A DNA stretch of 60,580 nt, taken from Rhizaria sp. SCN 62-66 (taxonomy: Eukaryota). The stretch lies in the NCBI GenBank assembly GCA_001724265.1, contig MEDY01000156.1, positions 1-60,580 on the forward strand, read 5' to 3'. This document shows, in pieces, positions 19,009-59,971 of the stretch. The stretch's first letter is position 1. Every line of letters starts with the position of its first letter. The notes under the pieces were generated by a model that ran no database searches, was not told the DNA's origin, and saw only the letters and a program-made list of their open reading frames with translations. Both the position numbers and the translations under genes were made by a program.

Positions 19009-19840
19009 CGCCGCGGGTGCGCGCTCGGGGAGAGGTGCAGGGGTGCGGGAGAAAAGGGTGGGGTTGGGTGCTGGTGGAAGAGCAAGACGGGGGTTGAGTG
19101 GAGCGAGTCTGCGAGAGGGCGGGGCCGGGCGGAGAATCGAGAGATTGGGAAACAGACAGAAGGTTATGAGAAAGGAGTTTGCGGAGAACATCAAGTTCGT
19201 TAAGCAAAAAAACAAGGAATCCGCATGAAAAACACAAGGTCGTCTTTGTGAAGAGCGCAGTATCTGAATTGGCGGTGGCTGGGGACATGAAAAACGTGCT
19301 TCCAGGGAATTAGAACCGACGAGAGTGATGTCTTGTCGAAAGAGATCGCCAGAAACGTTCTGCGCGACACAAACACAACCTGGCATTACAGAAGTTAATG
19401 AATATACATATGCGCTCACAGGCAACTTGGAAACCCAGCAGCACTGAATCTGGGCGTTGGGATAGTACGTTTACAATCGCTCGAAATCTCGGTCAGCAGG
19501 AGGCATCCCATGCTCTGGTTGTGGTGGCCGCGCCTCAGCCCCGCTCGCGGCCGACTGGTCTGCGACTGTGGGCGCCTCCCGACTGTGAGCAGGGTGTGGT
19601 TGGCTAACTTTCACGTCTCTGTGTGACGTATCCTGATCGTCAAGCGCACTGTTTTTGAATTTCCGAGTATACGCGCATCTAATCTCTCACCTCTTCTTAT
19701 TAAATCTCCACCGCTATATGTATAGATCTTGCTTGCGACTTGGCGCCAACCCTTGTCTCCCCTCTGTTTCCCCTCTCCATCCCCTCCTCCCCAGCAGCCT
19801 CGCGCGCCTCGCCCGCGGGCCAGCCCTTGCCGACCTCACC

Positions 19841-22458: not shown

Positions 22459-22534
<76 letters not shown>

Positions 22535-25500
22535 GCGCCGCTCTCAGTCACGCTGCCGCACTCCAACTCCAGCTCCAACACGGACCCACGCCCCCTGAGC
22601 ACCCGCAGCAACAGCGGCAACAGGAGCACTCGCAACAGCAACAGTAACGGTACCAGCAGCACCAGCGGCTCAAGTAAGAAGCAGGAGACGGACGCTGTCG
22701 CTGCCTACGCCAACAAGCGCCGGCCGTGGGTGTCCAACCTGCGCTCGCCGTCGCTGAACCAGGGCGTGTTCGGCGACCCGCCCCCCGTGGACTACACCAC
22801 CACGTTCCACTTCAAGCTCAACGTCGCCGAGTCGCCCGCGGCGGCGGCGGCGGCGGCGGCGGCCTCGGCGGCTACGGCGGCGGCCGCCGCGCGCCGGGCG
22901 CGGCTGTTTGGCAGCGGCGGCGCCTCGGGCAACACGGCGGCCGTTCACGCGTCGGGCTTCGCGCTTAAGGGCGCGGCGGCCGACAAGCACTGGCGCGATG
23001 TCACCAAGCAGCGGCTTGAGGCGGCGCAGCGCGCGTTGGGCGTGGGCAAGTACAACCAGGACCGGTTCGGCGTGTGGGCCAAGGCAGAGATTGACCCCGA
23101 GACGGCGCAGCTGCTGCAGACGGGCGTCGACATGGGGCGCGAAGTCAAGCCTCGTGAGGACGAGGTTAAGCCGCCGCCGAGGGAGGACTTCGGCGCCGGT
23201 AAGGGGTACTTGCAGCGGATGATTCTGCACCAGGTGGGCGCCTACATGGCGCGGGCATGGGGCACTTACAGCACGCAGCAGGAGCTCACTGCCACTGTGG
23301 GCGACTTCGTGACTGCGCTGTTGACGCTGCCATATCTGTCAGAGCACGAGCTCGACGTGCTCGCTGGCACTGCACTTGCCACCTCTACCGAGCACGGTGC
23401 TCCTGCGGCTATGTCGTCCTCAAAGGGCGCAATTGCGTTGCCGCCGAGGCCGAACATGAGTGCTCGCCCTCCGTGGGACCCTCGATTCATTCTCCACAAC
23501 TCCGCAGCTGAACAAAACAACAACAGCGGCCAGACCCAGCTTTCGGCCGCCGCGCTGTCGTCGTCGGCTTCATTTTCACTGTTGTCGCAGTCAACGTCGC
23601 GTGACAGCGCTGCCCCCTCGCGCTCTCGTTCGCGGTCCCGCACTGTCGCCGGCCACAACAACTGCGACTTGCAGTCGCGTTCTCGCTCCCGCTCGCAGTC
23701 GCGCGAGCCCGTTGTCGCGTCCTCCGCCGGCTTCCCCGCGTTCACAACCTCGGCCGCCTCCACGCTCGTGACCGCGTTCTGCACCAACCTCCCCGCGTCT
23801 GCTCTCGCCAACGCGCGCGCGGATTCGCGCTCGCGCTCTCGCTCCACCAGCCGCTCGCGCGGCGGTGCGGGTGGCGTGGCGGGCAAGGGCTGCGTGAGCT
23901 GCGGCTGCCCGTCGGCCGCGTCGTCCGCTCTCACGGGCAAGAGCAAGAGCTCTAACAGCAGCAACGGCGATGATGAGACTAACGTGACGGTGAGCGACGT
24001 CCGTGCTGGTTTCGCGAGTCTGCTGCGCTTTATTGCTGGGAACAAGCATGCACGCCGCGTGCTGGCGCTGTATGCGCAGTGGATCACCGCGCAAGATGAG
24101 CGCATTAGCTACTCAAGGCAGAACAACGAGCGTAAGCAGCAACAACACCACCAACATCAGCAGCAGCAGCGCGATGCAAGCGCCTCGGGGGCGACTGGAA
24201 ACACTGCGCGGACGAGCACTCGTAAGAACAATGCGCCCGTCTACGAAATCAAGGGCGGCAGCGGCCGCACGTGGGACGTGCGCCGTGGCAGCAGTCGCGA
24301 CCGCCGTGGCTATGCCATTGCCACGGAGCACGCGCATGCGATGAGCGACGAGTCGTTTGAACTGCAGCGCGCCGCTGCTGCCCACAATCGTAGTGTGCAG
24401 CCTAATTCTAACCTCGACACGGACTCGAACGACGACTGGAGGCAGGAGCAAAAGCAGCAGCAACAGCAGTCTGCGTCACTGCCACCGGCTGCTCTGAGTC
24501 GCCTCGGCGCCCCGCAGGTGACCGCGACTGCGAGCCTCTTGCCCGCGCACACGTGCAGGTGGTCGCACTCGAAGTCAAGCCGCATTCCGGACCTGCACTG
24601 CCGCGCGTGTTACACCTCGACTGTGGGCACCAATAACAGCGGCCACAACGGTGGCCACAGTCTCGGCGCCAACAACAGCGGCGGCGCGGTGAACAACAGC
24701 TGCAGCAACAACACGCGCTATAACACGGGCCGCGACAACGCGGGGCAGCGCTGCGGCGACTGCGGGTGCGACTGTGGCCGCGGTGGCGTCGGCAGCGGCG
24801 TTGGCGCGAACGCTCTGAGTAACGCTAGCAGTGTCGGGTTCAGCTCGCAGGCGCAGTCGCAATTCTCGCGCTCGCACGTACAGGCGCGCTCATGCGAGGT
24901 CGCGCGGGTCAGCAGTCGTGGCCGCTACGCCGAGGATTACCAGCTGCGGGCCGCGCACCTTAGGGCTTGCGCGCGCAACGAGGGAAGTCAAGCCGCATCT
25001 GGCGATGACACCGCGCAGAGTGGCAGCGACAATGAGTCTGGCCCGAACAACATGGTTCTCACGGTCATTGTTCCCGCGCTGCCTCTGCCACCGGGCACTT
25101 TGTTCCCCTCGATGCCGCCCAGCGACCGTGAGCAGCGCTCTCACCGTGGTCACCCTGATGGCGACGATGACTGTGAGCCGGGTGACCGTGAGCACGTGTG
25201 TACGCTGTTCGGCGGCATCACAGAGCGCTCTCCTGCTCTCGACTCGCCGCACCTCAACGTCGCACTCTCCGTCCCGCTCGCCACGCTCGTCCGTCTTGCC
25301 TTTGCCGGCATCTACTCGCAGAAGACGGCGACGGCCAGCAACGGCAGCGACGGCCGCGTTAGTGGCACGCACAGTCGCACGCCTTCACTGTCGCGGACGC
25401 AATCAGCGTTTGCGTACCAGAGCAACATGAGTCTGAGCCAGAGCCAGAGCCAGTACCAGAGCCATGCGCAGCGCGAGCGCGAGCGGTGGCGGCAGAGCGG

Positions 25501-28500
25501 CGCCGCGGCGGAGGAGGTTGAGGCTGCGGAGTCCGCGTGCGACGTGGTGCTGCGGCTGCTGGCGCTCTTCTACCGTCTGCCGTATGTTGCACTCGCGAGC
25601 AACGGTAAGAGCGCAACGAACATCTACGCTAACGCCCCCGACGCTGACTCTGTGAACGCCCGTCCTTGCTACAGTCGTAGAAACAGTCGTGGTGACGACA
25701 GTGCTGGTGGCGGCAACTCTCGGACTCACGACGACCATTCGCGCGCCATTTCTGACCGTGACAGCGCACGTAGCAGTGGTCGCGACAAAGATCGCAGTCA
25801 CGCTCGCAACAGTTCCAACTGCGGTCGTGGCAGTGCACGTGGCTACAATGATGATGATGCTGGCGCGGCTTCTTCGGTTCTCAACGACAATCGTCGTTCT
25901 GCCAATGCCACTCACACTCGGGCGGGCAGTAGTCGTGCGGTTGATAGCCGGAGCAGTCACAACTCGTCTCGCGTTGTTGCAAACCATGATGAGAGCTGGG
26001 GACCGAGCGTTACCACGACTCACGGAGCTTCACAGTCGACGCAGCGTGGATCTGATGTACAACGCAATGCTGCCAATCCCAATATCAACACTAGTGCTGT
26101 TGCAAGCTCTACCAGCAATGCTGTTCCTGCTGGAACCGTATCTGCTGCTGCTGCTACTGCTGCTGCTGAGCCAGAGAGCGCTACCGAGAGCAGCGCGGTT
26201 GACGACAGTGCTGTGCACCGTTGGAACGAGTATGTAGCTTCTCTCCACGACCACCATAACCGCATCGACCACGCCCACCCTTACAACGCTGACCCCAGCG
26301 CGAACGACGTCTCTACGCACAGGCACAGCGGCCGCTGCGACACCGCCGCTGACCTCGCGGCGACCTTTACCGCCGCAGCCGCGTCTGTGCGCGCTGCCAG
26401 CTTTGCGAACACCAATCTTGCCAACGCTAACGCCGATGTGGCTCCTGCGGAGGCCAGTGCAGGTCTTCCGAGTGCTGGTGACGGTGACGAGGCGTTCTTT
26501 GCTGCTTATAACGAAGTATGCCGTCGCTCTGACGCGATCATTCGCGGTGAGGCTAGCTCAATGGACGACGCCGCCACGCGCGAGAGCAAAAACGCCTTCT
26601 GGACTGCGCTCGGCGTCGCTCCGAGGCATCTCTCGCAACCGGCGCTTGCGACTGCGAATCAGAACGGTCACGCCGTCGCGAGGCCCGCGGAGCCGATGCC
26701 GTTGACACGGGCCCCCGCCGTGTCGACAACGCTGAACCCGATCAAAGCGGCCCACGTCGGCACGCAGATCTTCGGCCACCCGCTGCCGTTTAGCGTTACC
26801 ACGAGCAGCTCCTCGGTGCTCTCCGGCGCCGCGAACGCCGCGACTGCTGCCGCGGCGTCGCCGAGTGCGATGCAGAGCATGCAGACGTCTGCCCGCGGCG
26901 GCGTCGTGCTCCCCAGTGGCCACATCCACAACCGGGTGATGCTGTGCTCCGAGCGCGAGAACCCGCTCTTTAGCGCGTCGCTGACGTCTGTCGTCGGCAA
27001 CAACGCGCTGAGCAGCAAGGCAGCGCTGGACGGCCCGAGCCCTCTGCACCCGAAGCCTGCCACGTACACGCGCAAGAGCGACTCTGATGATGCCAGTCAG
27101 TCTCGTCACGCGCGCGGCGGCAGCAGCGGCGGCGCTGCACTGCACCTGGACTCTGTGCTGTCGCCGAGGGAGCGGCTTAACTTAGAGGCCGCGTCGGTGC
27201 ACAAGGAGCACTGGGAGAAGGCGCACGCAGGGGCGCGCATTGAGGACTGGGGCATCGGAGACACGATCAAGAATAAGTCGAATAGTCCAACCGCAAGTGA
27301 CGCCAACTTGAAGAGTGCTAGTAAGGAGCCCCGCGCGTTTGTGACCGACGACGCTGATGCTCGCTCCACCCGGTATTCCCACAATCGCGGCAACAGCAAC
27401 GACGCGGACGCGAGGACTCGTGCCCGTGCGACCGTTGTGTCGCCCGCTCGCTTCGGCTCCAGCACGGCTTCTTCAACGACCCACGGCAGCAGTGGTGGGA
27501 GCACAACCACGAGCAGCTCGAGCACGACTGTGCAGCAGAGCTCACAAGCACACCAGGCTGTAGCGTCCGAGCATGACATGTATGTCGACTCGCAGTTGCT
27601 ACACCAGCACGCGCCCCTCTTCACCGACAACGACGCGCCCTACTTAGCCGCTGCGGCTGCGCGCGTGCGTGGCGGGGCCACGTCCTCCAACGGCCTGACT
27701 TCGCGCCCCGATGGCGGAGGCTTCGTCGACGCTGACGGCCACTGGCATCGCGGGTACACAACGACCAACGCAGCATCAAACTCTCGTTCCAGCGCGAGTT
27801 CTGCTACTGCTGCATACGGCGGCAGTGGGGAAGGACTGACTAGTCCTGACCGTTTTGTAAACCCTACTCGTGCACTTGATGCTGACCGCTTCGGCGCCCG
27901 CGAGTACTTGGACATCAACAGTGATCGCGGCAACACGCTCACGTACGCAAATCCCCGCCATCAACAGGCTCACACCGACGAGGAGGAGCACCGGCGGCTC
28001 GAGTCCGACCACGCGGCGCGGCTTGACTTCGAGCTCGCGCGCGAGGTCCAGGCGTACCACAGCCGCAACCTCAACACGGGCCGCTGGTTAGACACCGCCG
28101 AGGCCCTCCTGGAGCCGGATCACATCGCGGCGCAATCGAGGTTTAACCGCTACGGCGTGGCTTCCCCGTCGTCGCCCGGTTTGAGCAAGGGATCCGTGGG
28201 CCACCCCAGAAAGCTGCGGTACCTCGGCGCGCCGCAGGGTGTGCGGGCCAGCCCTGCCCACGGCCACTTGAGCCACGAGGGCCACGCGTCTTCGCATTCG
28301 CACTCGCACGGCCACCGCGACGGTCGTCGCGACGGTCGCCGCGAGTTCCACTCCGGCGGCGGCCGCGTGTCGTCGCTGAGCGAGACTGAGGCCGCCGCCA
28401 TGGGGCTCGCCTCGCACCCGCGCTACACGCGCGGCATCGACAGCGCCAGCACGCTGGGCGTCGACCCCGTGTCCGGCATCCACCGCGGCCGCGGCTTCGG

Positions 28501-28747
28501 CACGGGCCACGAGGCGTATCTGCACGACCGTGACCACGACATCACAGGAGCTGGCGCTGACGTGGAAGTGAGCAGGGGCCGCGGGTGGGCGCGCGGCGAC
28601 CCCGTGTCCGAGGCCATTGCGCGTGGCGGGGTGACTGTCAGCAGCCCGCCCAGCCAGTATAACTACTCGGGCAACGGTAGCAGTGACACCAGCCGTGGCC
28701 GCGACTATGGCTACGAGGGTCTGCGTAACCAGAAGCCTTATTACTAA
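19841..28747 (+). CDS. Very large intronless low-complexity hypothetical protein (about 2970 aa)
   Basis: Uninterrupted frame from ATG 19841 (caccATGG) to TAA 28745-28747; acidic tracts, poly-Ala, poly-Gln and RSRSRS tracts; no recognised domain. Confidence 0.8.
22460..22531 (+). repeat. Pure (CAG)24 repeat encoding poly-Gln
   Basis: Read directly; in frame within the 19841-28747 ORF. Confidence 0.95.
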
Positions 28748-29033: not shown

Positions 29034-30124
29034 TTACTTGCTCGCCTCAGACCCAGCCGCAGCTGCAGCGGCCGGACTTGCGGCGCTACTGGCAGTCGCA
29101 CCAGCATCCGCCGCACTGGCAGTCGGCGTCGCGGCTGCAGAAGCGGCCGCAGCAGCAGCGGCGGCGGCGGCGCGCGCGGCGTTCTTGCGCCAGGCGGCGA
29201 TGACCCCCGGCGTGACCGCGACGGCGTCGGTGGTGGGGCCGATGGTCCGGCTGCCCAGCGCGCGCCACTGCTTGCCCGCGCTGTCGTACCGGTAGCTCTC
29301 CACCACGCCGCCGCTGCCGCTGCCACTCGCCCCGGCGGCGGCAGCGGCGGCGCCCGTCGCGCCGCCGGCGCCGTCGTCGCCGTTAGCGTGGCTGCCCAGG
29401 ATGGTCTGGGGCCCGTCGCCGATGATCCGCACGGCGCCACCCGCGCCCCCCGCCGCGGCCGCGTCGGCCACATACAGCCCCGCGAATGAGAGGCTCGCGT
29501 TGGCCTTGAGCACGACGACGAAGTGCAGCGCGGGGCACGCGGCGAGCTCGGCCAGCACGGCCGCGCGCTGCGGTGCGAGTGCGGCGCCCGCGAGCGCCAG
29601 GTGCGTGACGGCGTTGGCGATGAGCTTGCGGTTCGAGACCTGGCGCGGCGGCGGCACGGGCGCCGGCGACGGGTGGTGAAACAGACGCGGCGCGGCGGCG
29701 GCGGCCGCGGGCGGACGGTAGCCGCTCGACGCCAGCGAGGTCAGGATGTGCGCCAGCGAGTCGATGCTTGCGTGCGAGGGCGCGGGGGACGCTGACCGCG
29801 TGTTGGCCTTGCCAGCGTTCGCACTGCTGTTGTTGTTGTTGCTGTTGGAGTTTGCGGGGCTGGGGAGCGCGCCGGTGATGGCGGGCAGCGAGGCCGGCGC
29901 GCGGCCGCGGCCACGGGAATTTCCTCCGGACTGAGCGTCAGCGCTATTGCCAGTGTTGTCATGGGACTGCGAGAGCGACTGTGAGAGATGCGACGAGGCC
30001 GACTGCGGGCGCCGCGAGCTGCTCGCGCCCCTTACACCGCTTGGGGTACTTACATTAGCCCCACCAGCGCTACTGCCACCACTGGAGGCGCCCGCACTGC
30101 CCTGCTTACTCGGAGTGCCACTGC

Positions 30125-30155
<31 letters not shown>

Positions 30156-31599
30156 GCTGCTGTTGCGCAGAGCATGGCTCAGCGACGCCTGTGACTGCGA
30201 GCTACTCATCCCACCTCCAGAAGCAGAAGTTAGGCCGCCGCCCCCGCCGCCAGACTGCGGTCGCCCCCGCGACGGCGTGCGCATCCGAGCAGCCCCCGCA
30301 TCCTTACTATGCTGCTTGTTGTTGGTGTTGTTGTTGGAGTTGGCCACTGACGCGAGCGGCGCCTTGACGACCCCCGGGACGGCGTGCTGTTGCGCCGACT
30401 GGGCTCGCCGCAGCGCGCGCTGGGCGTCAAACGAGGCGCGGCGCCGCAGGATCGATGCGGGCACGCCGGCGAAGCGCGAGGCCTCGGCGTCGGGGCCCTG
30501 CGAGTCGGTGTCGCCGCCGCCGGGGCCGTCGTAAGCGTTCCCATTCCCATTCCCGTTGCTGGCATTGTTGTTGTTGTTGTTGCTATTGTTAGCAGGGGCG
30601 GGGTTGGCTTGAGTGAGAGGGACAAAGAACGCAGCCGCCTTCGCGTGCCCCCCTTTGCCTGCACTGACATTAGCGTCGATAGTAGTGTTGCTGTTGTTGC
30701 TCTCCGCGTTGGGCACCGTGGGCACCGGGGTGGGGATCGACGGCGGACCCCAGCGGCGCCGTTGCTGTGATTGGGTCGAGTGCGTTGAGTGCACCGAGCC
30801 CGTGTCGGACCCGTTGCCGTCGTCGTCATCGTCGTCATCGTCAGCGTTGGCGTTATTCCTCTCGTTGTCGCTGTTGCGGCCGCGATTAGCGTCGCCACCG
30901 ATGCGTTGTTGTTGCCGGAGCTGTTGTTGCTGCACCTGGAGCAGCTGCTCCTGCTGCAGCTGGTGGAATTGGCTCTGGAGCTGGCTCTGCTGCTGCTGGT
31001 ACAGCGCGGACCGCGGCGACAGTGGCGGCGCAGCTGTCTGGGACTCAACACTCTCGGTCAAGGCAGCGTTGTGAAGAGCGCTGACGGGGGCAGCAACAGG
31101 TCCGGCAGCAGGAGCGACTGCAGCGGCACTCGGCATGACAACACCTGATGAAGACGACGCTTGTTGCTGGTGAACATAATTGTTGTTGTTATTGCTGTGA
31201 TTTTGTGAGTGTGAAGGCTGTGCGGGGCCGTACTGCGCGCCGGGCAGCGCCGCGGCGGCCGAGGCTGCGGCCGCAGCGCGCGCGGCAGCAACGGCGGCCT
31301 GCTCTTCCTTGAGGCGCGTGATCACGGCGACGCCGAGGTGGCGGCGGATGGCCAGGGCCGCTGCGTGCTAGCGGGCAGCGTCGGCCTGAAAGCATGCGAA
31401 GGAGGCCTGCAGCGACGATAGCAGGTCGCTGCCAGGGTCCACATCAAAGCGAACACGCTTCTCACGCTATACAAAATCGTTATGTGTTATGTAGAGTGAA
31501 GAGTGAGCTATGACAGTGACTTGGAAGGATGAGTGAACGAACAAACGCAACGTAGTGTGAACAGACACTGAAGGAGGAGCGTACCGTGACTTCTGCCAT
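29034..31599 (-). CDS. CKK-domain (CAMSAP/Patronin-like) microtubule-binding protein; exons 31599-31585, 31466-29034; in-frame TAG at 31370-31368
   Basis: C-terminal SNRKLIANAVTHLALAG...HFVVVLK...FAGLY...IIGDGPQTI...YRYDSAGKQW...TTDAVAV matches the CKK pattern (SN..II.NA..H..LAG; F..LY; G.GP..I; Y.Y.S..K.F; DA). Exon 1 MAEVT, intron 31584-31467 gtacgc..tatag; stop TAA. Confidence 0.82.
30126..30155 (-). repeat. (AAC)n poly-Asn microsatellite in the CKK gene
   Basis: Run of ttg on the + strand. Confidence 0.85.
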
Positions 31600-40902: not shown

Positions 40903-43900
40903 TCACTTGTTCCCCCCCATGGCGGCCGCCGCGCGCTCGCTGAGCGACGACGTCTGACTCGCGCGGCCCCAGCGCCCGCCCTTCTCGGCCGCCGCCTTAG
41001 CCGCGCGCTCGCGCTGGCGCTGCAGCTTGGCGGCGCGCGCCGCCTTGGCCGCGAGCAGGGCCATGTTCTCGCCGCGGGGGCCTGGGTAGGCGGAGATGAC
41101 TGAGCCCGCGAGCAGACGGGACGGGGCGTCGCCCTCGCCCAGCGCGGGTGGCGGCGCCGCGGCCTCGTCGGGGCCCGGCGGCGGCGCGAGATACGAGTCG
41201 CCCATGCGAGACAGGCGCAGCGGGGCGCGCAGCGGCGGCAGCTGCGGCACGGACACGGCCTGTTGAGACTGCGCCTGTGCCTGCGAGGGCGGGTGCGATA
41301 ATGCGTTGGGTAGAGACTGAGAGAGCGGGAGACCAGAGAAACCGGCGTGCATGGCGCCACCTGCTCCTGCAGTAGCACTGTTCGCACCGCTGTTGCCACT
41401 TGCAACCATGCCCATACTCGCACTGGAGCTCGAGCCGCTATCGCCGCTTGATGCAGCAGCCTGAGTCTGACTCAGCTGCCTCGCCAGCGCAACGCGGTAC
41501 GCCTCGATCGCGGCGTTATTGGTCCGCGCGATTTCCTCCGCAGAGGGCTTCGGCGGCGGCTTGCCCCTGTGGAGCGTCGGCGTTACCGTCGCGTTAGGCA
41601 CGCGGCCGTACTTCTCGTCCTTGTACCGGTTCGCGGCGTCGAGCGCGGCCTTTTTGCGCGCCGCCTGCCACTCGGCCACCGCGGCGGCCTTGAGCACGGC
41701 CACCTGCGCCTGCGCCGCGCCGGCCACGGGCGCAATCGCCGGGTCCGCCAGCGAGTAGCTCAAGTACCCCTTAGAGCCCAGCTCCACGGGCTCGGGGTTC
41801 GTGAACAAGTCGCCCACAGCAGGTCCGCCGGCAGAGGCGCCAGTGGCCCCCGCCTCGCTACTATGCATATGCGGGGCCGACGGGTGCAGGTGCAGCGTGA
41901 GCGACGCCGACGCGGGCGCGGCGGGGGTCAACGCGGCCGCAAGAGACAGAGGCACGCCATTCCACTTCGGGCCCGAAGTCACGCCGTTCCCAGCGCTCGA
42001 AGCTAAGCCGCCCGCGGGCAGCGTGGGATAGCTGGCAGTGCCAGCATTCTTGGTCGCGGCCGTGATCGCAGTCGCCGAGTACACCGGCGGCGACAGCAGC
42101 AGCGTTGTGGCCTGCGCGGACGCGGCGCCCGCGGCGGCGGCAGACGGGGGCGCCTTGCCAATCATCGTCGTCGTCGACTGGTACTGGTGGCGGCCCGCGT
42201 TCAGCGACGACTGCAGCGACGCGCCGTACAGCGCGCTGAGCGCGTGCGTCGTGAGTGTGTGGCGCTTCGTCGCTGCGTCGGCCTCGGCTGCGGCGGCGGA
42301 CGCTGCGGCTGCAGCGGCAGCGGCAGCGGCTGCGGCGGCTGCGGCTGATGCGGAGGCCTTCGAGCCACCTGGCGAGGTCAACCCGCCGTTGTACTCATCA
42401 TCGTCGTCGTCGTTGTTGTTTCTGCTGTTCTCTGAGCCATCACTGTTGCCGTCGTCGTCGTCATCGTCCCCCGCAGTGGCCGCCGCGGCGGCAGCAGCGG
42501 CCGCGGACGCCGCGCGACCGCCGCGCCCAGCCCCGACGCGGCCAGCGCCGCCACGCTTGCCGCCGCCATGCGCCTGCTGGCCCGGCTGCCACTGCGCACC
42601 CGGCGCCTGCGCGGCTGCGGACGAGAGCGCGGCGGCGGCGGCCGCAGCGGCGTAGTCGTCGTAGTCGCGCTCGAGCTTGCTCTGCACGTACGCGCGCATG
42701 TTGGCCGGGATGGCGACGCCGATGTGGCGCAGATGGCCGTCGACGTGACGCATCTTAGCGTCAAGCGCGGCCATCGCCGCCTGCGAGCGCGCGGACGCGT
42801 GCGCCTGCATCGTGTGGACGTTGACGTTCGACGCCGCCGCCTTGGCCAGCGCGGCCGAGCCCGCCGCCGCGGCCGCGATCACGTTGTAGTCGAGCGGGGC
42901 CGGGACCGCGCTAGCGCCCGGCGCGGCGGCGGCCACGGCGGCCGCGGTCGCGGCGGCCACGGCGGCCGGCACTGGCAACAGCTTGTCGTACGCCGCAACG
43001 AGCGTGTGGTGCGTGTCCGAGGACATGTAAGTGCCCGGCGCAGCAGAGTCTAAGGGGTACGGCGTCGAGAAGCGGTCGCGGCGGGTCGCGGTCGCCGCGG
43101 CGGCCACGGCGGCGGCGGCGACTGCGGCTGCGGCGGCACCGCGGATGCGGCGTTCGCGGCGCTTTTGCCTCCGCTGCTGCTGCTTGTTGCCGCTACTCAA
43201 TTGCGACGGAGACTGCGATTGACTGAAGAAGTCGCCAGCGTTGGCCAAGTCGTCTTTGTCGTCGATGCTGGCGTTGTTATTGCGCTGCTGTTCCTGGCCC
43301 TGGCGCAGCGCCGCCAAGCCGCGACGGGCGTAGATGCGCGCGAGCTGCTTTTCCGACAAGCGGGCAGCAACCTTCTTCGGTCCAGTCCCCACAGCTCTCG
43401 CACCAGCACCAGCAGCGGAGGCGCTACTGCCCGCGCTTCTGGCGTAGGAGGCGGCGCCGGCGACAGCAGTGCCCGTCTTCGTGCCGTTGACCGACAGAGC
43501 GTCGCCGCCGCCGCCGTTGGCGGGCCCAGCGCCGCTCCCCGCGCCCTCGCCGGCGTCACCGTGCGGCTGGCCCGTCTGCAGCAGCTGCTGCTGCTGCGCG
43601 GCGAGCGCGACGGCGGACGCGGCCGACACCGCCGCGACGGCCGCGCCCGCGCCGTGCGAGCCGTAGAGCGCGTTCACGGCCGCGGGGGGCACAAAGGCGG
43701 CGAACTCGGCAAAGGCGGGCGGGACAACGGCCGTGGCGGCGGGTCGCTGCAACAGCATCGGGCCGTCGCTGGGTGTGCGGCCATGTGCGTCGGCCGCGAT
43801 CGCCGCCAGTGCAGTCTCAGCAGTGAACGTCGGCGTCGGCGGGCTCGTCGTGTCGCCGGTGTAGCCGATGGCGGCGCTGTTCACGTTGAGGCTTGCGTTA

Positions 43901-44877
43901 GAGCCGGCGTTAAAGCTAGATGAAGAGGATGAGGAGGATGATGACTCGATGACCTTCATCTTGGTCAGGTCCGACAGGTACACGGGGATAAACACACCCT
44001 CCGTGGCCTTCTTCACGCGCGCCACGTCCGCGGCAACCCCCGCGACGGCGCCGAAGGTCAGCCCGGGCGCGCGGCGGCGCATGAGTGCGGCCGAGGCCCA
44101 GTCTGCGGGCGCGGCGAGTGTGCTGGCGCCCGCCGTGTGCGCGACTGCGGTGTGCGGGTGCGTTGTCACGAGCCGCGGCGTCGGCCGCGACGACGAGTAC
44201 GTCGCAGACAGGGCCGCGGTCGCCGCGGCCGCGGCAGAGGACGCCGAAAAGGACGGCGCGGCGGGCTCGTAGTAGGTGGCGGCGCGCGAGCTGGAGCTGG
44301 AGCAGCGCGCGTCGGCAGCGAAACCACCACCGCCGCCGCCGAAGCCGTTGCTGCTGCTGCTGTTCGAGGTGAGAAAGTGGGTCCGCGGGGCCACGGGGGA
44401 CGCGTGTGCCGAAAAGCCTCCGTGTCCGTGCGAGTGCGCAGCGCTCCTGCCTGTGAGCGTCCGTCGCGTCGACGCAGTCGAGGCCGAAGTAGCCGAGACA
44501 GGGGCTTGGTCCGAGTCAACCGTGTCTGCGCTCTCGGCGACCGTGTCGGGGTCGGCCAGCGCCGCCGTGAACGCAAACGCGCCCGCGGACTGGTACACGC
44601 GGGCGCGGACGCGCTCGGAGATCGAGCTGGGCTGGTTCGAGGAGGCAGCGTTTGCAGCAGCGGCGGCGGCGGCGGCGGCCGCCGCTGTGGAGGTCAGGGG
44701 ACGGGAGGAGGATGAGGTTGACATGGGCGAGCGGAGGCCGGTCATGCTAGGAGAGGCAAGGCCACTCGGGAAGGTCGGACGAGGGCTCGACGGTAAGTTG
44801 TCATGGGGCGCAAAGGCCAGGCTGGATGTCCGGGCGACTGCAGGCATGGCTGCAGTGCCAGGCGCGGCGGCCGACAT
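40903..44877 (-). CDS. Ala/Ser-rich low-complexity hypothetical protein (1324 aa, intronless)
   Basis: Long ATG-to-TGA frame with coding-like codon use; no domain recognised. Confidence 0.75.
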   Translation of the reverse strand: MSAAAPGTAAMPAVARTSSLAFAPHDNLPSSPRPTFPSGLASPSMTGLRSPMSTSSSSRPLTSTAAAAAAAAAAANAASSNQPSSISERVRARVYQSAGAFAFTAALADPDTVAESADTVDSDQAPVSATSASTASTRRTLTGRSAAHSHGHGGFSAHASPVAPRTHFLTSNSSSSNGFGGGGGGFAADARCSSSSSRAATYYEPAAPSFSASSAAAAATAALSATYSSSRPTPRLVTTHPHTAVAHTAGASTLAAPADWASAALMRRRAPGLTFGAVAGVAADVARVKKATEGVFIPVYLSDLTKMKVIESSSSSSSSSSFNAGSNASLNVNSAAIGYTGDTTSPPTPTFTAETALAAIAADAHGRTPSDGPMLLQRPAATAVVPPAFAEFAAFVPPAAVNALYGSHGAGAAVAAVSAASAVALAAQQQQLLQTGQPHGDAGEGAGSGAGPANGGGGDALSVNGTKTGTAVAGAASYARSAGSSASAAGAGARAVGTGPKKVAARLSEKQLARIYARRGLAALRQGQEQQRNNNASIDDKDDLANAGDFFSQSQSPSQLSSGNKQQQRRQKRRERRIRGAAAAAVAAAAVAAAATATRRDRFSTPYPLDSAAPGTYMSSDTHHTLVAAYDKLLPVPAAVAAATAAAVAAAAPGASAVPAPLDYNVIAAAAAGSAALAKAAASNVNVHTMQAHASARSQAAMAALDAKMRHVDGHLRHIGVAIPANMRAYVQSKLERDYDDYAAAAAAAALSSAAAQAPGAQWQPGQQAHGGGKRGGAGRVGAGRGGRAASAAAAAAAAATAGDDDDDDGNSDGSENSRNNNDDDDDEYNGGLTSPGGSKASASAAAAAAAAAAAAAAASAAAAEADAATKRHTLTTHALSALYGASLQSSLNAGRHQYQSTTTMIGKAPPSAAAAGAASAQATTLLLSPPVYSATAITAATKNAGTASYPTLPAGGLASSAGNGVTSGPKWNGVPLSLAAALTPAAPASASLTLHLHPSAPHMHSSEAGATGASAGGPAVGDLFTNPEPVELGSKGYLSYSLADPAIAPVAGAAQAQVAVLKAAAVAEWQAARKKAALDAANRYKDEKYGRVPNATVTPTLHRGKPPPKPSAEEIARTNNAAIEAYRVALARQLSQTQAAASSGDSGSSSSASMGMVASGNSGANSATAGAGGAMHAGFSGLPLSQSLPNALSHPPSQAQAQSQQAVSVPQLPPLRAPLRLSRMGDSYLAPPPGPDEAAAPPPALGEGDAPSRLLAGSVISAYPGPRGENMALLAAKAARAAKLQRQRERAAKAAAEKGGRWGRASQTSSLSERAAAAMGGNK

Positions 44878-45203
44878 GTTGTACAGACCGCTTTAGAGGA
44901 AGGCAGAAAACAAGAGGAAAAGTTTAATAAAGGATTAATATACACGCGAAATTTTTCAAATTCATACTCTAGCTGCATTTGCACTGACGGAAGTGTGAAT
45001 GAGATGTACGCGAGTAACGACAGCCAACTTCGGAAACGCTCGCTGTCGCCCGACTTCCTCTGGCGCCTCACTGTGCAACGATTTTACATCTATATCTCGC
45101 TATAAACATCGTCGCATAGACTGCATGCACAATATCCATATGATATTTGCGATTTTAACTCGACTCACGGGATTATTCTTCTTGTGCACTATGTCTCTGC
45201 AGC

Positions 45204-48200
45204 ATGTCGGCGGAATCCCCGCTCGACTCAACGTCCACGGCTCTCGAGCGAGCTCTCGCTGCTCGCGACCTCGCCGCTCTCGGCAAAATGTTGACATCTA
45301 TCGACTCTTTGACAAAAGCCGCTACTGGCACAGCTAGCTTACATACTGTGCTTGCGTTCTTGCACAAGACGTTTGTCTGTGGTGCTGACGCTCCACATTC
45401 GGTCATCGGATTGAAGTCCGAGTCAGGATGTCGCGACTCAACGAAGGCCACTGCTAGCGCCACAACAAGCAACACGACTGACAATGACGTGGTGTTTGCT
45501 TTTAAGCTTATGCAGCTCGCGCGTCCGCTGCTGCGCAGTGGTTCTTCGCGCGATCTCACTGCTGGTGGCGACGGTAAGCCCACTGACTCCGTCTTCGTAC
45601 CCCCCACACTGCTCCACTTCGCCACTGCGTGCGTCAGCAGCGGCTCGCCAGACTACATCGACGCCCTGGTCGCCGCATTTTTTACTTTCACCAACACGCA
45701 GAGCACTTGCACGATTGCAGCTGTAGACCCTAACTCTGATATCTCGGCGAGTAGCATTGTTGGAGCAGCGTCGGCAATCGCGACTGCTGCATACAGTCGC
45801 CCGCAAGAGCACCAGGAGATGCTGCAGTTGCTTTCTTCCGCAGCAGCTGCAGCTATGAACAGCGCCGACTATAATGCCGTTGTTGCGCGCGGTGTCGCAT
45901 ACACTGTTGCCCGCTTCGGCCTCTCCGTGACTTCACCGTTGCCCTCAGCTGACTCCATTACACCTGAGTCGCTGTTGGCTCAAGCGATCACGGTCTCGGC
46001 AAACACGACAACGACGGAACACGGTCTCACTTTGCCCTTGTGGATGACGTTAGACATGCAGTGCGACCAACAGAGGACATTGCTCAGCGCTGACAAGAGT
46101 TCGGCCAAGACCCCCGTCGCCAACAACAGCTCAGCTGAGAGTGCAGGTGCGAGTGTTGGCGCCCGGTTCGCTGCTCTTGTCCGCGACGGCGATGACGACG
46201 GGAACAATGGTGATGACGATGACGATGATGACGACGGCGATGATGTCAACCGCATTGTTCGCAGCATCAACAAGAGCAAAGCGAGCCCTGCAGCGAGTCT
46301 TAGCTCACAGCCCATCCCCGGTGCGTGCTTCACTCGTGACTCTGCAATCGCTGTTGCAAATGATGTTGTTCGCTCTGTCAACACCCATAACAGTGCAATT
46401 AACAATATAGGGTTTTTTGTCGTTTTGATGACAATCTTCACTCTTTCTCAGGCGCACCAGAAGAATCAGGCTGATAACACTCAATTGCTCACAGTTTCCG
46501 TATCAGACGCTTTAATCAGTTCCCACCTTGCATCTTTTCTTGCATCTGTTGATTCCCAAGCTCTCACGCCACCAGCCGTGTCATTAGCCTTGCTGGCAGT
46601 CACACATCTCGCCAACCGCGCATTGCGTGTCGGTGCATTCGCTGTCGCGAGTGCGCTGGTCGACAACGCAATTAGGACTGATTCTCTCAGTCAGGCGCAG
46701 TTGAAAGACTTGTTCAATGAGAGTATCAGTGCTGGTGCACCGATGATCGCTGCCATCATTGCCAGGAAGTTTGATTCCCGTCGCAGTGCAGGGTCAGGTT
46801 ACCTTCCGGGCCTCGCAATGTCTGCCCCGTCAGCGCAATCGCCGTCCCCACTATTTGCAACTGACGCTGACACAGAGGCCGTTGCGACTGCTATTTCTCG
46901 CATCAACAGTACTTGGTACTACCGGTTTCAACGGCAGCCCCAGCTTCTGAGTAGCACAACGTGTAAGTGCCACCACAAGCGCGAGCAGCTGCGGCCGCAA
47001 GCGAAAACGGATTCTTGCTTTGTGTGCGCACATCGTACTTCTATCAAGGCCACTCTTGGTGCGATTCTTTCAGTCTTAGTCCCTCATATCGCGACCCTGG
47101 CTCTCGTCAAGCAACACACATTCTTCATGATGCTCGTGCGCAACTTGTGTTCCCTCAATGCTCGCTCTGAGTCGAAACCACCCCTGCACGGCTTCTTCAT
47201 TGGCTCTGTGCTTTTGACAACACACGCCGCCATGTTCGCTCGCGCTGCGGCCTCAAGCGTTTAGAGCCAAGCTGCGCTGTGTGAGGCGTTGCTAGTCTCC
47301 GTTAACAGCGACTGCGGGCCACTGGTGGCAGCGTGTCTCTTAGCAGGCGCAGACGCGATGCTTGCGCTTGAGTCCAACCCGCTTAAGTCATCTCTTAGCA
47401 GCACAAGCAACATCAATATGAACGCGCTGTCAGATAAGATTAAGAAGATGAGTGGCAAGCGCGTGTGGCATGCTGCCGCAGCAACAGGCGCCACTGAGGC
47501 AGCGCGTGTTCTCCGCCTCTGCTGCTTTCTCGACAACAACTCTGGCTCTACACCTGCTCTTGATGTTGACCTTGACACTCACTGTACGTCTGTTGATTGT
47601 TTCTTCGACACGACATCCACGGCGACGCAGCTGTGCTTCGATCGCGACACCGCATCTATGTCGCTCAATGTCGCCTCTCTGCGGGAGAGTCTGCACGCAC
47701 CCTCCGAGGACGGCGACACCGCGCTGCACACGGCCTGCGGCACCGCCGCGTCCGCAACCGCGGCTGTCTCCTCTCTGCTCGGCAGCGCTAGCAGTACCAA
47801 CGCCGCCGTTGCGCTGGCGGAGGCGCTCGCGGCCCGCGCGTGGTCGGCCGTGACGGAGCTGCTGAAGGCTGGGGCCAATGTTCACCTGACTCCCGTCGCC
47901 GCGACGTATGCGCTTGAGAACAGTCTCCTGCCGATGATTGCGCCCGATCCACGCGACCATGCAAGTCGTTCATATTCGCTCAAGCCCGTTGTCATTCGCC
48001 CTGACTGCAGTGATATCAATGATCCGACCAGTACGAGTGATTTCGTGGCCACCTTGCCCTCTGCCCCGGTCCGCATTGGCTCCGGCAACACTCTGACCCC
48101 GTCCTGGGCCGTGGCCACCGTGCCTGCCCTGCCCGCGCTGGCCACGTACCTCGCCCTTGTCCACTCTCTGCGCGGACCCCGTGCCGCGCGCGCGTGCGCG

Positions 48201-48458
48201 GAGGACGCGCTCGAGGCTCTCGCGCTGCCGCTGCTCACGGTCACTGCGGAACACGCACGCGCTGCCGCCGAGGTGTGCTTTGGCGAGTATGGCGCAAAGT
48301 GCGACTTTGCACCGAGGTCGGCGATGTTTGAGAGCATCTACGACAGTTTGGACTCGAAGGACTCTGTTGTCACAAACCACGACGTCGTAATGGACAGCGG
48401 CTGTCTGAACACTGAGCTCTTGTCAACGTATCTGAACTCGACGTATGCATCACATTGC

Positions 48459-48489
<31 letters not shown>

Positions 48490-49718
48490 GCGACAACGAA
48501 ACTGCTGCGAAGAAGAGTGATGAATGCATTGTGCTTCATTTAGACTCGGTTATTGCATATTCGGAGTCAATCTCGAGCATGTCGAATTCTAGTTCAACGA
48601 ATACTGCGGAGAAAAACCGCCCCTTGGTGGTTCCGCCTCTCTGGTATTGCGCACACGTCACGTGCCGTGCATTTTCACCTCTCTGGTGGCTCCATAATGC
48701 GCTCACACAGGCAAGTGCAGATCTCAGCGAGTTTAACTCTAGCTCTAGCTCTGACATTTTAACAGCTGTAGCTGACATCGAGCACTGGCGTACGCGTCGC
48801 TCACTGTTCCCGTTGCTATTTCCATGCAACAAGCCCGCTCTAGTGCCAATCTTCCTCAGCTACGGTGCGTCGCCTAACGGCTTCAGCGGCGTTTGCCCGA
48901 CTCCCCTGTCGCTCGTCGCATCGGCCCCTCCACCAAGTCACAATAACGGCGCAGCCTCGCAGCAGAAGACCGGCTTAACTTCCGCGGCTGCGGCGCCGAG
49001 CGTGCACCCGTACCACTCCATGGCCATTCTCGCCCTGTCGCTCGGCGCCGACGCGAACGCGGTGTTCTCCACTTTGTCGCCACTGACGCCGCTGATCGCA
49101 GCGAGCGCGGCGGGCAACGTTTCGCTGTGCCGCGCGCTCGTCCGGGCTGGCGCAAAGGCTGTGGCCGTCAGCACCGGGCTTACTGTGAGCCACCCCGTTG
49201 TATGGAGCAAGCAGTTAGTGCGTGACCTGAAGAAGATGACTCGTGATACGAGCACGGTGAGTGAAGTGCACGCGAGTCGTAGCGTGTCAAGCTACACCAT
49301 CCGCGGGCTCTGGCCCCGCGGCCGCTCGCTGTTGCACTGGCTTGCGCTTGCGCCCGCCACCGCGGAGGCGTCCTACGCCGCGTCCCCGCGCTCTGCACGC
49401 GAGGACCTGCTCGAGTGGGCGCTCTACTGCGCTCTCGATGAGGCAGACGCTGCGGCGAAGGGGGACGCAGAGTGCACCCGGAGCGGACCTAAGGGCTCTG
49501 CAGCGACATCTAAGGGAGATTGGGAGGTGGTTACACCGTCGGAGCTTGCGGAGCGTGTTGCGGAGAGCGAGGGCCGTGATCCGGAGACTGGGTTTGTCGT
49601 GGCAGCGTTGCGGACGTGCGAGAAGGAGATGGGCAAGCGGTCGAGGCGCGTCGGTGCAGGGTGGCTGGGGCGCATGTGGTACTCGCTTGTGGAGTTCACA
49701 GAGGATTACATCATTTAA
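45204..49718 (+). CDS. Ankyrin-repeat-containing protein (about 1504 aa if TAG 47262-47264 is read as sense)
   Basis: ORFs 45204-47264 and 47289-49718 share a frame and are separated only by one TAG. Ankyrin-like motifs DGDTALHTAC, LLKAGANVH, FLSYGASPN, LSLGADAN, LTPLIAASAAGNVSLCRALVRAGA, GRSLLHWLA; terminal stop TAA. Confidence 0.72.
48459..48488 (+). repeat. (AAC)10 poly-Asn microsatellite
   Basis: Read directly, in frame. Confidence 0.9.
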
Positions 49719-56749: not shown

Positions 56750-57286
56750 CGTCTGTGGGAGAGGATACCGGGAAAGGGCGCAAGATAGAGGGAAGATAAG
56801 GCTGGGTGTGCGTGCGGAAAGACGTCGGGTACAGTACAGATAATGACCTATAGTGTTTAATTAAGAGAACGTCGCAATGAGATTATTTAAAATCTCGTTA
56901 TATCTGTCGTTTCGCTAGTGGTCGGACTGTTGACGCGGGACGACTCGACAAAGTTAACCCACTCGTTTCGAAAATCATGCCACGAAGCAAGAATAAGGTC
57001 CTGTCTTTGTCGGACGACTTCCCTTCGAAGGACTCACTTTGTGAACGCATAACACAACCATACTTCCGTCATTGGAGGTGTTGGTCTACAACAGCACTGT
57101 AACAATAGTTTCCTTCGCGGTATCTTTGTTATTTATTTTAAGATATTCATCACGCCTCACAGTATCCCCCGACATCCTTGCACTCTCCACTCGCCGATCA
57201 AGTTTTTTTTCTGGCCGTCTAAATCTCCGCGCCACACACTACAACGCTTGTTGCGCTCTCCGCGAGGCCGACCCTGTTCTTGCCGA

Positions 57287-59971
57287 ATGCGTCTCCTAGC
57301 CCTTGCGCTAGCGAGCCTGGCTGCCGCGGTGACCGCACTGTCTTTCGCGCCCGTGTCTGTCCCGCTCACGGCGAGCGCCAACGGACTGCAGTACACACTC
57401 TCGCTGGGCGTGTCGAACCCGGCGGGCGGCTCTCCGCAGACGCTCGCGGGGCTTGTGCTCGACACCTCGACGTTGGACATTGTGGTGACCACAACGGTGG
57501 GCTGTGCCGCCATGGGGGTTCCGGCGTAGTCGCCGTGTTTGAACAGGACCGCGTTTGGTAATCTCAACGCTGAAGGGGATTCCACCGGGTGGGGACTGTA
57601 TCTCGACGGTACCGGCGTTCTGTGTGTTGTTAGCAGTCCGAACTATTCGTCAACTGATTCCTGTGAGGCGTACAAGCTTACGCCTACAGTCTCTGCAACC
57701 ATCGTCGTACGTTGTTTCATTGACACATTTCGGTCACCTCACTACGTGTACATGATACGCTAAGGATTTATCGTGTCACACTTCTTGATTCCGTCTGCTA
57801 TTTTTGTCACTGCGCTCTATTTATAGAACTCCCTGACGCCATTCCCGCTGCAACCCAGCTCGCCCTCTGACGTCTTCATCACCGACGGTTATAAGTTCAC
57901 CCCTTCCATCAACAACTCGGGCGATGACCCGTACGTCCCTACATACTTCGCCAAGCCCTCCCTGCGCGGCTTTGTCGGCATCACCCCACTGACCTCGACC
58001 TTCTGGGGCCTCGTCTCCGCATCTTTGCCTGCCGCCAGTGGCACCACCTCGACAGCGACAGTCGGCACGTACGCGCTGCTGCTGTCGCCGCCCGCGAGCA
58101 TCTACTCTGCACCCTTTCTCCCCGCGCCGGGATTGGTCGCCGGCGAGTCCACGCTCTACCTCGGCGGCGCACCCCCGGCCACCGCGGTGCTGCCTCCCAA
58201 CTCAAACCCAAACACAGACTCTAGTTCTAGCTCCAGCTCTGGCTCTACTGACGAGGATGCCACCGCGCCCGGCGCGGGGCTGCTGAGCGGCGTACCGCTG
58301 GCGACCGACTTGCCGTACGCATCGGTCTACGCGCCCTCGGTCTGCGGCCGCCGCCTGCCGTTCGCGTACACGTCGTCGACGTCAGGCGTGGCCAAGGAGC
58401 CCGTGGCGACCGAGAGTATGACCACGGGGCTGCTCGACACCGCGAGCAGTTGCCTCACGCTGCCCGCGGCTACTTTTGACGCCCTCGTCTCCTGGCTTCC
58501 GCTCCAGTGCATCACGCGCCCCGTGGACGCGCTCGACATGCTGTCGTCGACGGCGCGCATTTGCCGTTATCTGTACGCGAGCGCGGCGCAGGCGACGGCC
58601 AAGGCGACGCCGCTACCCTCGCTTGACTTCGCGTTGACGCCCGCGACGGCTGTGTCGACGTACCTGACCGATGACCACGACAACGACCTCGACGAGGACT
58701 GGGGGTCCGCGGCCGGGTACTTACACCTGCCCTTAGAGCGGCTGCTGCTGCCGTTCAGCGCGATCTCTGACGACCCCGCCGCGGCGACGGCGGCAGCGCT
58801 GGCGTAGACTGCGCTGAACCCTGACGCCAACCTCACGGGGCTGCTCTACGGGGACTGGACGTCCGACACGCCCGTGCTGTGCATGGTCCGCGGCACGCGG
58901 CTTAGCTTCGGCGCGATGGCCGTCTCGGCGTTCCAGGTCCAGGTCGAGACCGTTGAGGTCTCGACAAACGCAGCGACCACTGGGGGCGGCAAGGCCTCTT
59001 ACTCCACCAAGGTGAGCTTGGCCAACCGCGCGACGGCGGGCATTGCGGCATCGGTGGGCGCGGGCGCGGCCAACGCGACGACGAGCGCGACCGCCGGGAA
59101 CCCTTGGGCACTTGTGGTGGGCAGCGGGTCGGTCCGCACGCAGTGCCGGCCCGTGCGCGCGTGCCGCGGCATGCAGACCAGCACGTTTGGCTTCAACGTG
59201 TGCTTCGACCCGCCGTGTGACACGTACTTCTTCATGTCGACCGACGACGACACCAAGAAGTGCTACCTCGCGCCGGGCTTCTACGTCATCATCGCCATTG
59301 TCGTCGCCGCGTTCATCTTCGCCGAGCTAGGTTGGCTCTGCTGCTTCGAGCGCCTCTCGCGCAACGTACACTCGGACTCGATCGTTATCGGCATCCCGCA
59401 CCGCTCCTCGCTTGCCTCCGCGGCTGCCATTGCCGACGGCGCCGCGCCCCCGCAGCAGCAACAGTATGGCAACGGTGGCGGCAACGGCGGCGGCAGCAAC
59501 GCGGCGTCGTCGTCGTTCCCACACGTGGGACTGAACGACCCCATTCATAACCTTGCCGACGCCCTTCGCGCGGTCGATAGCAACCCGCGAGCGCAGCAAC
59601 AGGCGGGTTCCGCGCGCTCCGCAGCTTCCGGCTCCTCATCGTCGTCGTCAGCGTCGTCGTTTGCGGCCGCTGCGAGCGCGGGTGGCGCGGGCGCGGGCGC
59701 GATCCCCGGGCAGCGGCGCGGGGGGCGGCAGCGGCTGGCGAACGCGGACTCAAACTCGATTTCACAGCAGCAGCAACAGAGCGAGGCCGCTATGCTGCAG
59801 CAAAGGTACCAGCAGCAACAGCAGCGCGAGCAGCCACAGCAACAACAGCAGCGGCACAGCGCCAACGGAGAGGAGTCGGCGCGCGCGGCGGCCAATTTCG
59901 GCGCTGAAAGGGCTCGAATGGCGGCGAGTGAAGCTGCGGCGTATAACGAGCACTGGAACAACATGACCTGA
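57287..59971 (+). CDS. Type I membrane pepsin-like (A1) aspartic protease homolog (about 854 aa); exons 57287-57706, 57827-59971; in-frame TAG at 57527-57529 and 58805-58807
   Basis: Signal peptide MRLLALALASLAAAVTA; pepsin landmarks in order: QYTLSLGVSNP..QTL..VLDTSTLDIVV, RGFVGI, STLYLGG, LLDTASSCLTLP, LPSLDF, LCM..SFGAMAVSAF; Cys-rich stalk, TM helix (FYVIIAIVVAAFIFAELGWLCC), Q/A-rich tail; intron 57707-57826 gtacgt..tag; terminal stop TGA. Confidence 0.78.

Follow-up and report, generated by a model that had tools for sequence, protein, structure and literature searches.

The window analyzed here, a 60,580-nucleotide stretch of contig MEDY01000156.1 (Rhizaria sp. SCN 62-66), contains on its forward strand a gene for a divergent pepsin-like membrane protein (57287-59971, +) whose reading frame holds two TAG codons, TAG1 (57527-57529, +) and TAG2 (58805-58807, +). 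The evidence leans toward UAG being decoded, and not serving as a terminator, in this protist. The data are best explained by TAG being read as sense, mainly because of evidence from the whole window, which was absent from a preliminary description of this DNA: TAG ends none of 17 genes (11 end in TAA and 6 in TGA) despite a GC content at third codon positions (GC3) of 0.8-0.9, and the 14,034 codons of 22 coding segments hold four internal TAGs, in three genes, and no internal TAA or TGA. That description had also proposed UAG decoding, arguing that two lesions that are both TAG would be unlikely for a pseudogene. The proposal draws support from the absence of TAG at gene ends and from the other TAG-bearing genes; the argument itself fails, because GC3-rich codon usage makes TAG the majority of nonsense changes (54-67% of the possible nonsense substitutions, with p ~0.38 that two out of two are TAG).

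If UAG is decoded, the locus would be an intact gene of two exons, and its product a type I membrane protein made up, in this order, of a pepsin-like luminal domain, a Cys-rich juxtamembrane module, a single transmembrane (TM) helix and a low-complexity cytoplasmic tail; both in-frame UAGs would be translated. UAG would be a very rare sense codon, at ~0.3 per 1000 comparable to ATA, and tolerated for the most part in loops under weak constraint, in genes that evolve fast, while UAA would be the major terminator and UGA a minor one. The cell would presumably possess a UAG-reading tRNA, release-factor recognition of UAG would be lost or weak, and the protein would be made.

Architecture of the pepsin-like gene

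Between the ATG at 57287 and the TGA at 59971, four codons interrupt the frame on the + strand (TAG 57527, TAA 57761, TAG 57824 and TAG 58805), dividing it into stop-to-stop pieces at 57053-57529, 57530-57763, 57827-58807 and 58808-59971, all in one frame. The preliminary description had listed four same-frame open reading frame (ORF) pieces, which agree with this list, and every coordinate given there is correct. The TAA and the second of the three TAGs fall within the intron proposed there (57707-57826, +), which spans 120 nucleotides (nt), runs from GTACGT to TATAG and has a GC content of 0.41. This intron fits the pattern of the conserved genes in the window, whose donors are almost uniformly GTACG[CT] or GTATGT and whose cleanly delimited introns measure 141-189 nt, with a GC content of 0.32-0.40, a pyrimidine tract and a YAG end. 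Exon 1 (57287-57706, +, 140 codons) encodes the predicted signal peptide, the start of the N-lobe with LDTST, and the Cys..Cys loop holding TAG1. Exon 2 (57827-59971, +, 714 codons plus the TGA) completes the N-lobe and supplies the C-lobe, which includes LLDTASSCLTLP and the last fold motif; its 3' part encodes the Cys-rich juxtamembrane module, the TM helix and the low-complexity tail. The spliced product has 854 residues, and no frameshift, TAA or TGA occurs in its 854 codons, in line with the earlier statement that nothing else in the gene is broken.

The first catalytic-position Asp codon (GAC, 57461-57463, +) lies in LVLDTST and aligns to the DTGS column of the family; the second (GAC, 58436-58438, +) lies in LLDTAS, at the position of the family consensus VDTGxxCLxLP. 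The last pepsin fold motif, LSFGAMAVSAF (~58901-58933, +), corresponds to IxFGxxALxSLY in the family and to ILGDVFLRSYY in pepsin. TAG1 is codon 81, 22 codons past the first Asp (57461), and TAG2 is codon 467 of the spliced protein, between the second Asp (58436) and the last fold motif (~58901), both placed as originally described. Further downstream, the Cys-rich juxtamembrane module QCRP..C.GMQ..NVCFDPPC..YFF..KC (59144-59263, +), common to ~100 relatives, precedes a predicted TM helix (59285-59341, +, residues 627-645) with a 19-residue Kyte-Doolittle mean of 2.56, the maximum of the protein. In a hydropathy scan over 19-residue stretches, exactly two segments stand out as strongly hydrophobic, one at residues 3-21 (the signal peptide) and one at residues 627-645 (the TM helix), and hydropathy and the profiles of relatives together bear out a joined product with signal peptide, two lobes, TM helix and tail. 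As a separate observation, ~100 metagenomic proteins carry the module in the form C..C.G.Q..N.C.DP.C..Y.F...C plus the TM helix, joined to divergent pepsin-like domains, and no Pfam model covers it.

No suitable donor lies near either TAG. No GTAYG donor occurs between the ATG and TAG1, and the closest GTAYG 5' of TAG2, at 58573, lies in GC-rich sequence conserved in homologs; an intron from 58573 to TAG2 would measure 235 nt and break the frame. The absence of a usable donor beside the TAGs had been pointed out before.

Assignment to the pepsin (peptidase A1) fold comes through relatives. A Pfam scan of the protein itself gave no match at E<=1, which counts against a direct family assignment, and sequence searches of the PDB with the protein or a 2-row profile returned nothing relevant; only profiles built from many relatives reach the pepsins. 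A HMMER scan of 1.84 billion representatives retrieved 115 proteins at E<=0.001. Three of these are the protein's own fragments (residues 1-80, 247-506 and 533-end), two stopping at the TAGs and the third starting soon after TAG2. Two are true homologs, P0003 (518 amino acids, best stretch 45% identical) and P0006 (547 amino acids, 38% identical), which run uninterrupted across the TAG2 column, stay conserved beyond it, and have gene models that lack the first lobe. Some 100 more share the stretch surrounding the second Asp, together with the Cys-rich juxtamembrane-plus-TM module. PF00026 was detected in 16 of the 30 relatives scanned, in 15 of them above the curated cut-off; P0003 and P0006 are without it.

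With such relatives combined, the fold becomes recognizable. A profile of 82 family members, the target included, matches gastricsin (3e-22), BACE2 (1e-19) and pepsin (3e-18) over the whole domain, and hhalign of the target and its two homologs against 15 Asp-positive relatives gives a probability of 100% (E 6e-44). A hidden Markov model (HMM) built from the 15 PF00026-positive relatives, with the target left out, matches the spliced protein in one domain (87 bits; HMM 7-370, residues 23-512) that crosses the exon junction and both TAGs, as expected from the earlier claim that both lie within one pepsin-like domain. Exon 1 alone scores 20.3 bits against this HMM (best of 2000 shuffles, 4.3 bits), and the neighbors of the middle piece in a language-model atlas are PF00026 clusters (top score 0.93). 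Judged by sequence profiles, the luminal part therefore stands as a divergent pepsin-like (A1) domain from end to end across both TAGs.

The pepsin fold claimed in the preliminary description is thus upheld by the profiles of relatives, but neither by a direct Pfam match nor by DTG motifs. The catalytic motifs are D-T-S (57461) and D-T-A (58436), with both D-T-G glycines replaced where the family consensus has DTG twice, leaving the protein without the two D-T/S-G motifs of peptidase A1. In the homologs, the second motif is DTS (P0003) or DTA (P0006). Because DT[SA]S is common to these conserved homologs, sequence comparison marks the replacement as characteristic of the subfamily, not as decay; with both glycines replaced, the protein may be a protease of non-canonical type or one without activity. 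Like pepsin, gastricsin and BACE/memapsin, it is predicted to be bilobal, with one Asp per lobe at the D-T/S-G position, a pair of Cys following the first Asp and a hydrophobic FG..L..Y motif on the C-terminal side, and, as in BACE, a C-terminal TM helix would make it a type I membrane protein. Unlike typical peptidase A1 members, it is missed by PF00026, has DTS/DTA motifs and long Ser/Ala-rich insertions, and carries the extra Cys-rich juxtamembrane module, found only in the ~100 metagenomic relatives.

Position and reality of the two TAG codons

TAG1 falls in a variable loop between two family-conserved Cys. The loop is C-x10-C here and x9-x15 in relatives, and the TAG1 column of an 82-row MAFFT alignment is filled in 43 of the 81 relatives, by S/T/N/R/L/P. 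TAG2 falls in a loop of low occupancy flanked by HLPLERLLLP and TPVLC, where P0003 has Leu and P0006 has Arg in the TAG2 column and both homolog loops are four residues longer than that of the target. Since the loop lengths at both TAGs are equal to or below those of relatives, the TAG codons do not appear to be spliced out; they seem to take up real positions in the chain, without indicating the residue inserted.

The TAGs are not assembly errors, because both recur in other metagenome assemblies. A second assembly (L001), 99.987% identical to the window, contains both, although it may share a source with the window and so may not be independent. Contigs of run X4 differ from the window by 0-3%: one (56900-57635) has 10 differences, all but one of which are placed and none of those at TAG1, and another (58636-59000) covers TAG2 with 0 differences. 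A contig of the RNA library X6 (58671-59136) likewise covers TAG2 with 0 differences, although DNA carry-over is possible there and contigs drop minority variants. In X5, from another, unrelated study, a contig across TAG2 has one synonymous difference and reaches just 30 nt 5' of the codon, where the bridging rule asks for one more. Run X1, probably the source of the window, was not counted. Searches for the DNA of relatives in genome, viral and metagenome contigs returned only L001, whose DNA is that of the window, and a look-up in the 90% protein clusters showed no variant that is longer and spans a TAG.

TAG usage across the window

About half of the 17 gene ends were placed by homology, and for the others the end of a long ORF was taken; left out of the count were 16897 and 18412, which lie in introns, and 13243, a TAA in an uncertain ORF. 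The internal TAGs amount to 0.29 per 1000 codons, and the 3 occurrences of ATA and 13 of AGA place the rarity of TAG within the range of real sense codons.

Beyond the target gene, one TAG (47262-47264, +) lies in an ORF of 1,520 codons (45159-49718) with a weak ankyrin-repeat match. It is preceded by 701 and followed by 817 stop-free codons in one frame, with no AT-rich spacer, and gene callers split the gene at this codon into P0238 and P0239; a protein search for relatives returned only these two fragments from the window itself. The other TAG (31368-31370, -) is codon 38 of a CKK-domain/CAMSAP-like gene (29034-31599), modeled with an ATG at 31599, a 5-codon first exon, a 118-nt GTACGC intron and an in-frame exon 2.

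Several further candidates were set aside. TAG 40049 was considered as terminator of the nucleoside phosphorylase gene and rejected, as it belongs to an intron whose GTACGT donor is at 40027. The in-frame TAGs at 1924, 18270, 31469 and 53475 are intron acceptors and were not counted, nor were TAG 39697, within the first intron of the same phosphorylase gene, and TAG 2746, in a 5' untranslated region. A codon-usage log-odds score trained on the conserved genes was dropped as a test, low-complexity genes not being separable from non-coding frames; by this score TAG 58805 is the sole stop with clearly positive values on both sides.

Nuclear codes that reassign UAG alone offer the closest comparison. 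Iotanema spirale reads UAG as Gln and Rhizaria sp. exLh reads it as Leu, with UAA/UGA/UAG terminator counts of 104/15/0 and 56/15/0 and with 204 UAGs in 126 genes and 384 in 71 genes, respectively, hyperconserved Gln or Leu columns included (PMC5304391). Phyllopharyngean ciliates read UAG as Leu or Gln (PMC11687900). The window has the same features: UAG alone occurs in frame, never UAA or UGA, and is absent from gene ends. It also agrees with all of these in that UAA is the dominant and UGA the minor terminator (11/6/0 in the window). Unlike the organisms of those UAG-only systems, its source is a GC-rich, intron-bearing protist. Euthynema mutabile, a standard-code fornicate related to recoded lineages, ends 7 of 170 genes in UAG and has no in-frame UAG in coding sequences (PMC9161772). 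UAG is rare as a terminator in both (7/170 and 0/17), and the four in-frame TAGs are found only in the window.

Free drift of TAG with CAG, as of TTG with CTG, would give ~83 TAGs where 4 are observed. A reassignment, if real, would therefore be young, or UAG poorly read. It is conceivable, as a tentative suggestion, that this uncultured lineage is at an early stage of a UAG stop-to-sense change, in which the codon has been purged from gene ends and is reappearing rarely, far below mutational equilibrium.

Evidence against UAG decoding and alternative explanations

Several observations weigh against UAG decoding. Strain variation is the first. Among 27 strain differences classified in the gene (5 more exist, and several of the 27 come from single contigs at a depth below 5), 11 are synonymous and 16 non-synonymous; with a neutral synonymous share of 0.285, this corresponds to a ratio of non-synonymous to synonymous change (dN/dS) of ~0.6, which is not clearly below 1 (p ~0.1 against neutrality, an estimate). 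Between the two TAGs the ratio is near neutral, at ~0.8 (7 synonymous, 14 non-synonymous), and GC3 drops from 0.85 to 0.60 right after TAG1. The RNA data point the same way: the sole contig of the polyA RNA library X6 over the 120-nt intron (57568-57864) is unspliced, and no spliced product over the intron was found among the X6 contigs, at the contig level. This contig may be DNA carry-over or pre-mRNA; if it were mature RNA, TAA 57761 would end translation under any code.

Further points concern the codon itself. Reading the homologous residues at the TAG columns, a check proposed in the preliminary description, found both columns occupied but neither conserved (L/R at TAG2; S/T/N/R/L/P at TAG1), so that the homologs indicate neither the residue inserted nor that one is inserted at all. 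No TAG occurs in the 4,807 codons of the Pfam-supported conserved genes, whereas known UAG-only codes show UAG in conserved genes. Rare codons in general are scarce in these genes, however (5 of 73 TTG and 1 of 3 ATA), so that zero TAGs is what would be expected of a disfavored sense codon. Iotanema and exLh have 1.6-5 UAGs per gene, against 4 in ~22 genes here, none of them in a conserved gene or column. TAGs are moreover clustered, with 2 fixed and 1 strain-specific in the 855 target codons against 2 in the other ~13,179, a pattern that decay would also give. The 17 gene ends are a small sample: at the 7/170 rate of the standard-code fornicate, zero of 17 would have a probability of ~0.5. 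Finally, tRNA gene and Rfam scans of the 60.6-kb window were both empty, and no eRF1 gene was noticed there.

The alternative that survives best, though an improbable one, is a young pseudogene under the standard code, which would have acquired one TAG nonsense mutation, then a second, and a third in one strain, with no frameshifts yet. The share of TAG among possible nonsense substitutions, 60-63% in this gene, makes an all-TAG outcome unremarkable for the two TAGs of this gene and gives p ~0.14 for the window's four. The weak constraint between strains, the concentration of TAGs in the target gene, the unspliced RNA-library contig and the lost D-T-G glycines would all fit decay. So would an additional TAG that one X5 contig (depth 2.7) has, by C>T, in place of a CAG (Gln) codon of the window (58505-58507, +). 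This difference, which may be an error, could be either a further lesion or a hint that TAG is equivalent to Gln; as a weak lead, it suggests Gln as the residue inserted at UAG.

Against decay, a pseudogene explanation of the window as a whole would need 3 of ~22 genes in 60 kb to have been inactivated solely by TAGs, without a single frameshift or internal TAA or TGA in the ~3,170 codons of the three TAG-bearing genes, and it would leave the absence of TAG from the 17 terminators to be explained. For a neutral gene to take a second nonsense hit, ~38 substitutions (1/0.026) would be needed, and if indels arise at 10-20% of the rate of substitutions, several of them would be expected alongside. 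The frame is nevertheless intact when set against the two homologs, no frameshift occurs in the gene's coding DNA contigs of the compared runs, and the 387-nt upstream spacer has one indel. The glycine replacement in the second motif is shared with the conserved P0003 and P0006, which argues against its being a sign of decay. Comparison of dN/dS beside the TAGs, another check proposed at the outset, gave a divided answer: near neutrality between them, and 3 synonymous differences to 1 non-synonymous after TAG2.

The absence of differences in X4 over 58323-59249 was rejected as a sign of purifying selection, because synonymous sites are identical too and, X4 having two alleles elsewhere, a window-like strain in that run accounts for it. 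A segment of exon 1 (57636-57685) is hypervariable, with seven differences in 50 nt (4 synonymous, 3 non-synonymous), in X4 and X6 contigs alike. Another X6 contig has an extra G in a G-run at 59719 that would shift the frame of the tail; X4 is without this insertion. X6 stretches without RNA-library cover, flanks included, were left out of interpretation.

Leaky termination under the standard code, in which UAG would still be a stop but would be read through often enough by a near-cognate or weak suppressor tRNA for a few genes under weak selection to tolerate it, as an ambiguous intermediate, is distinctly less probable. It would account for the extreme sparseness of in-frame TAG (4/14,034), its restriction to variable loops of poorly conserved genes and its shortfall from the number expected under drift with CAG. 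Two TAGs in one ORF, however, would multiply the inefficiency of readthrough, and the four TAGs have no common 3' context (T, A, A and C are the bases that follow, with no shared motif). No stable RNA structure was found downstream either, the 100 nt after each TAG folding no better than shuffles (z 0.61, 0.37, 1.32 and 1.26), and the complete absence of TAG from the counted terminators fits a lost stop function.

Adenosine-to-inosine editing converts UAG to UGG in some filamentous fungi, and TAG is the codon favored by fungal stop-loss editing. Repair of the TAGs in mRNA, by such editing or by unconventional splicing, is nevertheless very improbable here: only the fact that all interrupting codons are TAG speaks for it, whereas the X6 contig 58671-59136 keeps TAG2 (subject to possible carry-over and to the loss of minority variants in contigs), homolog loop lengths leave no space for excision, the sole GT..AG pair ending at TAG2 spans 55 nt, is GC-rich and is out of frame, and no homolog has Trp at either TAG column. 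What little probability remains falls to other explanations.

Implications of a possible, nearly unused UAG sense codon

UAG-only nuclear reassignment with UAA kept as a stop is known from a handful of lineages, all of them seen long after the change, with UAG already abundant. Decoding of UAG in the organism of the window would add an independent lineage in which the codon is almost unused, a stage at which the codon capture and ambiguous intermediate models make different testable predictions. If the early-stage interpretation were true, the window would offer a natural snapshot of the codon-capture route in a lineage without sequenced relatives. No published report of such a code in a wastewater organism was found in the literature, which does not prove that none exists. 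In practical terms, metagenome gene callers cut the genes of this organism at TAG, and public collections accordingly hold the target protein as three fragments and the ankyrin-repeat protein as two.

Host and neighboring genes

The window is nuclear eukaryotic DNA. Throughout, coding sequence is GC-rich (GC3 ~0.8-0.9), and spacers and short introns are AT-rich. Recognizable genes include those for aspartyl-tRNA synthetase, farnesyl-diphosphate synthase, a cullin, a CEP76-like protein, the CKK/CAMSAP-like protein, purine nucleoside phosphorylase, Arp4, MCM2, Y14, a p24 protein and a PX-domain protein. The same DNA recurs in bioreactor, wastewater and activated-sludge metagenomes. Arp4 of the window is 78% and 71% identical to metagenomic proteins and <=40% identical to any named species, with the named matches taxonomically scattered, which points to a lineage without a sequenced close relative.

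Several ORFs stand apart from these conserved genes. One (19637-28747, +) has 3,037 stop-free codons, no Pfam match and runs of Ala, Ser, Gln, Asn and Asp; further long low-complexity ORFs without a family lie at 10794-13592 and 40903-44892. An apparent gene for ribosomal protein eS30 (5388-5960, +), recognized by eye, has GTACGT and GTATGT introns, and its final recognizable codons lead directly into the GTATGT donor.

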